Shown here piece by piece: positions 54,214 to 54,604 of a DNA stretch of 64,000 nucleotides. The DNA lies in the NCBI RefSeq assembly GCF_057098645.1, contig NZ_CM169472.1; one strand, written 5' to 3'. Position numbers: made by a program. The number at the start of each line of letters is the position of its first letter. The stretch's first letter is position 1.

Positions 54214-54604
54214 CTATCCACGGGACGATCCCCTGCGTGACATTCACATATATGAAAAAATCGTGCCAGTTTTGCAACTCATTGATTTTTCGAGATGCGG
54301 CAAAAACGTGATGCACGATTTATAGGGCAATACCCTGAAGATGCACCATTCTGGGGCACCAAACTGGTGCGCTAAAATTGTGCACTCAACACAGTGATTA
54401 TTTAGCGTAAAACCTGATGAAAAAACAATCTTTATGTAACGATTGTGTGATGATGTGGATACAAAAAATTTACTTAATCAGCTGGGGATAGCAGATGGAT
54501 GCACTAAATAAGTGCGTTGAGGCGGGCTGCAAAACAAAACGGCCTCCTGTCAGGAAGCCGCTTTTATCGGGTACTAAAGTTCTGCACCATCAGCGATGGA
54601 TTTA

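Follow-up and report, generated by a model that had tools for sequence, protein, structure and literature searches.

The segment at positions 54249-54390 of the window (the whole stretch of 64,000 nucleotides that was analysed) lies upstream of glnH, in the intergenic region that separates this gene from dps, and is read on the minus strand. It raises the question of whether its motifs constitute a functional nitrogen-regulated sigma54 promoter or merely resemble one. The element in question is almost certainly glnHp2, the sigma54-dependent, NtrC-activated and IHF-assisted promoter of the glnHPQ operon, which encodes the glutamine ABC transporter of E. coli. Since 1991, glnHp2 has served as a model of sigma54 transcription that depends on an enhancer and is assisted by IHF. 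The promoter, including its NtrC enhancer and its IHF site, is already known and well characterised from experiments in K-12, and the observation made here is real and ordinary.

The identity of the locus was established by comparison with sequenced genomes. A 501-bp query around the promoter matched 5421 of the 5426 complete E. coli genomes. The identity to positions 54150-54650 was at least 99% in 5120 records, and among the sequenced genomes of O145 and O169:H41 strains several reached 100%. The window belongs to an E. coli chromosome of the O145-like EHEC type. The matching E. coli records annotate the aligned stretch as the dps-glnH spacer, for which the gene coordinates give a length of 403 bp. 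Upstream, the control region of glnH is bounded by the terminator of dps.

To number this region, the coordinates of a published construct were used. Mao et al. cloned the DNA from -289 to +63 of glnHp2 and provided the sequences of both primers (PMC1865078). Primers p#1 (-289) and p#2 (+63) mapped to positions 54530 and 54179, respectively, and each places +1 at the same nucleotide. The sequence differs from glnHp2 of K-12 by one SNP at 54523, which is in the p#1 primer region and outside all of the sites, with no functional difference. The features of the locus are listed in Table 1.

Table 1. Positions in the window of the genes, promoters and protein-binding sites of the dps-glnH region and the glnHPQ operon.
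Feature	Position	Strand	Remarks
glnQ	51936-52658	minus	
glnP	52655-53314	minus	
glnH, first gene of glnHPQ, driven by glnHp2	53452-54198	minus	ATG at 54198
5' UTR of glnH	54199-54241	minus	
glnHp2 transcription start, +1 (G)	54241	minus	inferred from published construct coordinates
sigma54 -24/-12 element of glnHp2, TGGCACGATTTTTTCATAT	54250-54268	minus	sequence, PWM and published ChIP-seq motif
IHF core AATCAATGAGTTG, perfect match to WATCAANNNNTTR	54275-54287	minus	-46 to -34; A tract precedes
promoter-proximal NtrC dyad TGCCCCAGAATGGTGCA	54342-54358	minus	1/14 mismatches; centre -109
promoter-distal NtrC dyad CGCACCAGTTTGGTGCC	54355-54371	minus	2/14 mismatches; centre -122
third, weak NtrC-like 17-mer TGCACAATTTTAGCGCA	54368-54384	minus	3/14 mismatches; centre -135
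sigma70 promoter glnHp1	54392-54464	minus	published CRP site and hexamers read from sequence
-10 of glnHp1, TAAATA	54399-54404	minus	read from sequence; conservation 0.88 in Enterobacteriaceae
-35 of glnHp1, TTGTTT	54422-54427	minus	read from sequence; conservation 0.95 in Enterobacteriaceae
weak CRP site of glnHp1	54443-54464	minus	sequence and -61.5 position from PMC1865078, mapped here
distal NtrC-like dyad CGCACTTATTTAGTGCA	54500-54516	minus	centre -267 from glnHp2 +1, ~-116 from glnHp1 +1
intrinsic terminator of dps, hairpin GCGGCTTCCTG-A-CAGGAGGCCG then T tract	54531-54561	minus	sequence reading
dps, end	54602	minus	

The sigma54 element is on the same strand as glnH, and its 3' end is 52 nt from the ATG. 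Relative to the +1 position, the GG of the -24 element (54266-54267) is at -26/-25, and a TC is found at -14/-13 where the consensus has GC. The consensus tested was bipartite with fixed spacing (TGGCAC-N5-TTGCW), and the element at glnH has one mismatch to TGGCACGNNNNTTGCW. For quantitative scoring, a position weight matrix (PWM) was constructed from the 40 intergenic-sense ChIP-seq motifs in Table 1 of Bonocora et al. (PMC4591121), from which the sites of glnH and of ybhK, the latter also inside the window, were excluded. The glnH 17-mer scored 16.5 bits, higher than any other site in the window, and ranked 22 of 40 relative to the training sites, whose scores ranged from 8.6 to 21.4 bits with a median of 16.2. 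Thus, motif scoring, which the initial annotation had named as the test that could speak against a minus-strand -24/-12 element upstream of glnH, returned this very element as the top match.

The score cannot carry the argument by itself. Given that 31% of random Markov-1 windows of 64 kb hold a sigma54 site of at least 16.5 bits, the motif alone is not significant window-wide, and its weight derives from its location. Moreover, the counts of loose consensus matches for sigma54 and NtrC across the 64 kb were not enriched relative to shuffled sequences and provide no support for the finding on their own; the leave-out PWM and cluster statistics were used instead. These two results are what would favour the view that the motifs co-occur by chance without any regulatory role and that glnH is driven by glnHp1 only. 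A second sigma54-like match, at 52297-52313 inside glnQ, scored 14.7 bits with the same PWM. It was not found in the searched text and tables of the ChIP-seq paper (PMC4591121), so function is not proven by a PWM score alone.

The published binding data speak against chance. The sigma54 ChIP-seq peak OS06, which carries an EcoCyc confirmation flag, has as its motif the minus-strand 17-mer CTGGCACGATTTTTTCA at a distance of 44 nt from glnH (PMC4591121); the 17-mer, gene, strand and distance are the same here. The OS06 signal is modest, with a FAT of 6 compared with up to 201 for hypA, and sigma54 overexpression raises the expression of only five genes that have intergenic sites, glnH among them (PMC4591121). 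In addition, genomic SELEX with the RpoN holoenzyme gave a peak in the glnH-dps spacer (PMC8743547), and glnHp2 has been described as dependent on both sigma54 and NtrC-P (PMC1865078).

The enhancer provides evidence of a different kind. NtrC boxes were scored at 14 positions against the consensus TGCACCAnnnTGGTGCA, as cited in PMC8743547. Three 17-mers, all within 54249-54390, are spaced 13 bp from centre to centre, so adjacent sites overlap by 4 bp, and the two good ones share positions 54355-54358. The initial annotation had described two tandem NtrC sites upstream of the promoter; both dyads are present, but they overlap and are not separate tandem sites. A pair of sites with at most 2 mismatches each within 40 bp occurred in none of 4000 random Markov-1 windows, nor did a triple with at most 3 mismatches each within 30 bp (0/4000). 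With a looser 12-position pattern, pairs were found in 24 and triples in 9 of 1000 random windows. The NtrC cluster is significant by itself.

The centres of the two good dyads also fall inside the range of about 80-150 bp upstream of a sigma54 promoter that is expected for an NtrC enhancer. Claverie-Martin and Magasanik reportedly described, in 1991, two overlapping NRI sites at -109 and -122. We take the dyads identified here, with the same centres, to be those NRI sites, a match based on the primer-derived coordinates and the reported positions. E. coli glnHp2 is further similar in having an IHF site between these dyads and the promoter.

Occupancy of the enhancer has been documented on a genomic scale. 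In nitrogen-starved cells, NtrC ChIP-seq yielded a peak at glnHPQ (peak 3) with 74.8-fold enrichment (PMC4066584), and NtrC genomic SELEX yielded an 87% peak in the glnH-dps spacer (PMC8743547). The nitrogen-regulated sigma54/NtrC architecture that had been expected for glnHPQ is thus in agreement with published ChIP-seq, genomic SELEX and NtrC-P dependence.

The IHF core is located between the NtrC dyads and the -24 element and had been passed over in the first reading. It is the sole match in the dps-glnH intergenic region, and the window contains 8 matches where 2.5 were expected. Looping at glnHp2 needs the bend that IHF induces (PMC2709558). Binding of IHF at glnH was demonstrated by a DNase I footprint (cited in PMC8407004 from Claverie-Martin and Magasanik, 1991) and was reproduced by ChIP-qPCR (PMC8407004). 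When the separate rates are multiplied, which gives an order of magnitude only, an enhancer, an IHF site, a promoter and a gene set in this order would be expected by chance many orders of magnitude less often than once per window.

To compare the locus across Enterobacterales, orthologous regions were sought with a degenerate DNA pattern that covers an 11-letter GlnH peptide; in the species-representative genomes, it yielded 120 loci. Because this anchor is inside the coding sequence of glnH, the loci were not selected for the promoter. A TGGCAY...TTTCA element was found upstream of the anchor in 52 Enterobacterales loci. The distance between element and anchor was fixed at 152-169 nt in 49 of the 52 and was larger in two Yersinia and one Edwardsiella. 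Among the scanned loci, nothing comparable was found in more distant Proteobacteria or in Pectobacterium, Brenneria and Dickeya.

Conservation was calculated as the mean fraction of sequences with the commonest base in an alignment of 28 genera. It was 1.00 for TGGCA of the -24 element and 0.99 for TTTCAT of the -12 element, compared with 0.56 for the whole intergenic region. In the enhancer, the half-site GCACCA of the distal dyad of the pair and the proximal half-site GGTGCA had values of 0.94 and 0.88, respectively, and the shared middle of the two dyads 0.74. The spacer between enhancer and IHF site had a value of only 0.49, and the IHF core was conserved at 0.88 in Enterobacteriaceae and 0.66 overall. 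These conserved islands are the footprint that would be expected of a functional unit of enhancer, bend and promoter. An Rfam scan of 53400-55400 with E-values of up to 1 gave no match above the gathering score, and at 54529-54564, the region of the dps terminator, there were only sub-threshold hairpin-type matches. The conservation of the region is unexplained by any Rfam RNA element.

With the NtrC pair in none of the 4000 random windows, enhancer, IHF site, promoter and gene in the correct order, all elements appearing as conserved islands across 28 genera, and published binding of sigma54 and NtrC that includes in vivo ChIP-seq, a chance co-occurrence at glnH is extremely unlikely.

The weak third 17-mer was rejected as a conserved site. 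The part of it not shared with the neighbouring dyad (54372-54384) had a conservation of 0.41 across the 28 genera, compared with the intergenic mean of 0.56. It is probably non-functional or specific to E. coli, judging from the alignment, and not a general part of the system.

The near-complete conservation of TTTCAT could have another origin. Read on the plus strand, it is the ATGAAA start of a divergent ORF, which from 54252 reads ATG AAA AAA TCG TGC CAG and is 19 codons long up to its stop, and its CAT is about 99% conserved; selection on a coding sequence would then explain the conservation. In two relatives (L012 and L025), however, the variants TGGCACGATTATTTCA turn this reading into ATG AAA TAA. 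Moreover, no Shine-Dalgarno sequence precedes the ATG, and the conservation follows the bipartite -24/-12 spacing, not a codon periodicity. The small ORF at the conserved CAT was rejected because of the in-frame stops in relatives, and a coding origin of the conservation is vanishingly improbable.

Upstream of the enhancer is the sigma70 promoter glnHp1, which the initial annotation did not include. It is sigma70-dependent and aided by CRP (PMC1865078). With the CRP site at -61.5, the start site of glnHp1 would be at about 54392, directly abutting the segment 54249-54390. A sigma70/terminator scan of 54100-54700 returned a plus-strand hairpin only and missed both glnHp1 and the dps terminator. 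The terminator was missed because its loop is shorter than the minimum of the tool, and the blank result of a simple sigma70 scan at glnHp1 fits the published weakness of p1.

Given a glnHp1 start at about 54392, the NtrC dyads would extend, in the p1 transcript, from about +22 to about +51. Because they lie just downstream of this start, NtrC bound to them could hinder p1. As an operator or roadblock, the dyads might chiefly repress glnHp1, as at glnAp1, instead of serving as the enhancer of glnHp2. The architecture of glnH has been called very similar to that of glnAp1/p2 (PMC3870243), and a repression loop might be formed with the help of the distal NtrC-like dyad, which is conserved and lies at about -116 of p1. 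Such a role is compatible with the geometry, but it is not exclusive with the documented enhancer function. Moreover, glnHp2 is NtrC-P-dependent (PMC1865078), dyads at -109 and -122 with an IHF site in between have the classical geometry of an enhancer, and no data on repression of p1 by NtrC were found in the literature searched. It is therefore highly unlikely that the dyads act mainly on glnHp1, and they are treated below as the enhancer of glnHp2.

From the literature, activation at this locus would proceed as follows. The sigma54-RNA polymerase would bind at 54250-54268 and form a closed complex that is unable to open alone. Under nitrogen limitation, NtrB would phosphorylate NtrC, and NtrC-P would assemble on the overlapping dyads at -109 and -122 (54342-54371). 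IHF bound at -46 to -34 would bend the DNA so that the NtrC oligomer contacts the polymerase, and ATP hydrolysis by NtrC would drive formation of the open complex and transcription from about 54241.

The -12 element of glnHp2 deviates from other sigma54 promoters, a point on which the first reading was silent. The G of the GC doublet was present in all 41 of the other intergenic-sense sigma54 sites of E. coli and is missing at glnH. The published bound set also includes the doublets GT (pspA) and GA (hydN), and GC is thus the consensus and not strictly defining (PMC4591121). A T at this position, where the other intergenic sites have G, points to a weak site for polymerase binding. Consistent with this, glnHp2 is a sigma54 promoter that has been described as weak; when a remote enhancer was present on the same plasmid, glnAp2, glnKp and nacp were cross-activated but glnHp2 was not (bioRxiv 10.1101/086108). 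Among the 52 loci, the position was T in 46, C in 4 and G in 2, both of the latter from Rahnella. With T or C in 50 of the 52 loci, a weak -12 is a conserved property, and the non-consensus base may be under purifying selection. We infer that the conserved weak -12 fits the published weakness, IHF dependence and resistance to cross-activation of glnHp2. It might have been selected because activation then depends on the IHF-directed loop from its own enhancer. A G at 54255 in place of this T would restore the GC, and an up-mutation similar to this was reportedly made in the Magasanik laboratory in the 1990s.

The orthologous promoter of Salmonella Typhimurium glnHPQ (STM0830) has the same non-consensus T at -12. 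Sigma54 binds there at TGGCATGATTTTTTCATT, and the expression of glnHPQ was 7.1-fold higher in the wild type than in the rpoN deletion mutant (PMC3844500). Different from the E. coli site, the -24 element of Salmonella reads TGGCAT, with T in place of C.

glnAp2, the paradigm of this class, shares with glnHp2 the sigma54 -24/-12 element, the NtrC-P enhancer, which consists of two dyads located over 100 bp upstream, and the placement of this enhancer over or adjoining a CRP-dependent sigma70 promoter, p1. However, the NtrC sites of glnAp2, at -108 and -140, are separate and on the same helix face, whereas the dyads of glnHp2 overlap and are 13 bp apart. In addition, glnAp2 is a strong promoter with a near-consensus site (TTGGCACAGATTTCGCT, FAT 21), whereas the -12 of glnHp2 is weak. 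glnAp2 also lacks an obvious IHF site and is transcribed well without IHF in vitro, whereas glnHp2 requires IHF. In the latter respects, glnHp2 is similar to nifH of K. pneumoniae and Pu of P. putida, which are likewise IHF-dependent, weak to moderate sigma54 promoters with the order enhancer-IHF-promoter and with bend-assisted looping. Their activators, NifA and XylR, respectively, and their enhancer sequences are different.

The IHF site varied among families. Of 53 loci, 44 had an IHF-like core with at most one mismatch in the stretch from enhancer to promoter, compared with 12% of shuffled segments. Among 32 Enterobacteriaceae, 27 had the core as oriented in E. coli, 19 nt upstream of TGGCA. 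An inverted core, at about 31-32 nt upstream of TGGCA, was instead found in Hafniaceae, most Yersiniaceae and some Erwiniaceae, and in three Hafniaceae it matched perfectly. Thus, between Enterobacteriaceae and Hafniaceae/Yersiniaceae, the IHF site may have changed its direction and moved by about 12 bp with its bending function kept.

The distal NtrC-like dyad is directly after the dps terminator. In the window it is degenerate, with 3 mismatches at 12 positions. A 17-mer with at most 2 mismatches at 12 positions, 240 +/- 1 nt upstream of TGGCA, was found in 28 of the 32 Enterobacteriaceae loci, and it was a perfect match in Superficieibacter; Citrobacter likewise has a better match than the window. 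This dyad may be part of the system as a putative third NtrC site, as suggested by its fixed position, and no report of a dyad at -267 was found in the literature searched. Speculatively, the distal dyad and the proximal pair could be joined in a loop by an NtrC oligomer, which would silence glnHp1 while activating glnHp2.

Only these comparative refinements, i.e., the weak -12, the inverted IHF site and the distal NtrC-like dyad, exceed the textbook account of glnHp2, and all of them are modest. The comparison across Enterobacterales leaves it possible, though somewhat doubtful, that a distal NtrC dyad, a selected weak -12 and an IHF inversion are three genuine and previously unreported features of glnHp2; for none of the three was a report found in the literature searched. 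They are possibly of interest for the specificity between enhancers and promoters or for the switching between p1 and p2 in the Ntr regulon. Otherwise the finding is of little import, and it serves as a positive control in which a real sigma54/NtrC promoter was correctly recognised from its sequence alone.

Finally, the 5' UTR of glnH can form a hairpin from +1 to +26 (GGGG-N4-CCCC), the energy of which was not unusual (z = 0.06) and which is conserved in Enterobacteriaceae.

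The -12 elements of the orthologous glnH promoters (loci L002-L120) differed from those of other sigma54 promoters at the G of the 'GC'. T or C replaced this G in 50 of the 52 Enterobacterales promoters, and G was found only in the two Rahnella loci L085 and L097. The -12 G was present in all of the 41 other intergenic-sense sigma54 ChIP-seq motifs of E. coli. Because T or C is kept at so many glnH loci (50/52) and the other E. coli motifs all have G (41/41), the weak -12 element of glnH looks to be under selection.

The IHF cores of these promoters also varied among the loci compared, which included L062, L074, L076, L039, L085 and others. 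In Enterobacteriaceae, the core lay 19 nt upstream of TGGCA, in the E. coli orientation. An inverted core, about 31-32 nt upstream, was found in Hafniaceae, most Yersiniaceae and some Erwiniaceae. This comparison suggests turnover of the IHF site, with a bend between enhancer and promoter being kept.

Directly preceded by the dps terminator, a distal NtrC-like dyad was identified, for which a limited literature search found no published mention. In 28 of 32 Enterobacteriaceae, it had two or fewer mismatches in 12 positions and its distance to the -24 element was constant (240 ± 1 nt); the dyad of Superficieibacter (L007) was a perfect match. It was not found in the Erwiniaceae and Yersiniaceae loci compared. 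A stem in the 5' UTR of glnHp2 (54199-54241) was kept in Enterobacteriaceae, among whose species G-U to G-C differences were found; its fold was energetically ordinary (z = 0.06).

Features at glnHp2 and other sigma54-like sites, in window coordinates
Feature	Position	Strand	Sequence	Location
-12 element of glnHp2	54252-54257	minus		
IHF core	54275-54287	minus		
Distal NtrC-like dyad	54500-54516	minus	CGCACTTATTTAGTGCA	centre -267 from glnHp2 +1
5' UTR stem	+9 to +20	minus	GGGG-N4-CCCC	glnHp2 5' UTR
Second published sigma54 site	19649-19665	minus	TTGGCAGGTTAATTGCT	45 nt upstream of ybhK/yvcK
Sigma54-like 17-mer	52297-52313	minus	CTGGCACGTGAGCTGCT	within glnQ, sense orientation

The ybhK/yvcK site, which is ChIP-seq peak OS05 (PMC4591121), scored 12.9 bits with the sigma54 matrix. 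The 17-mer within glnQ scored 14.7 bits, the second-highest score in the window, and was absent from the text and tables searched of the same ChIP-seq paper (PMC4591121). Thus, the glnQ-internal site probably either matches by chance or is not bound.

Comparison with O145 genomes (99.6-100% identical) showed that the window begins inside a lambdoid prophage (about 1-11200) adjoining the bio operon. This prophage carries head and tail genes and the type III effector genes nleH, cif and espJ, and espX2 lies between rhlE and dinG (about 36700-39000). Given this prophage cargo and espX2, the strain is, by gene content, of the EHEC/EPEC type and not K-12. Collinearity with RM9872 was imperfect, with an offset of about 360 bp near ybhK. 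At 54523 (minus strand), the window had GCAGCCCGCC versus GCAGCCCACC in the MG1655 sequence of p#1, the cloning primer at the -289 end of a glnHp2 construct (PMC1865078); this one-base difference is flanked by the dps terminator and the distal dyad and falls outside every recognised site. Finally, a molybdenum-cofactor riboswitch is annotated upstream of moaA in a close relative (L122, 21182-21326), and its equivalent in the window would lie at approximately 20860-21000 (plus strand).
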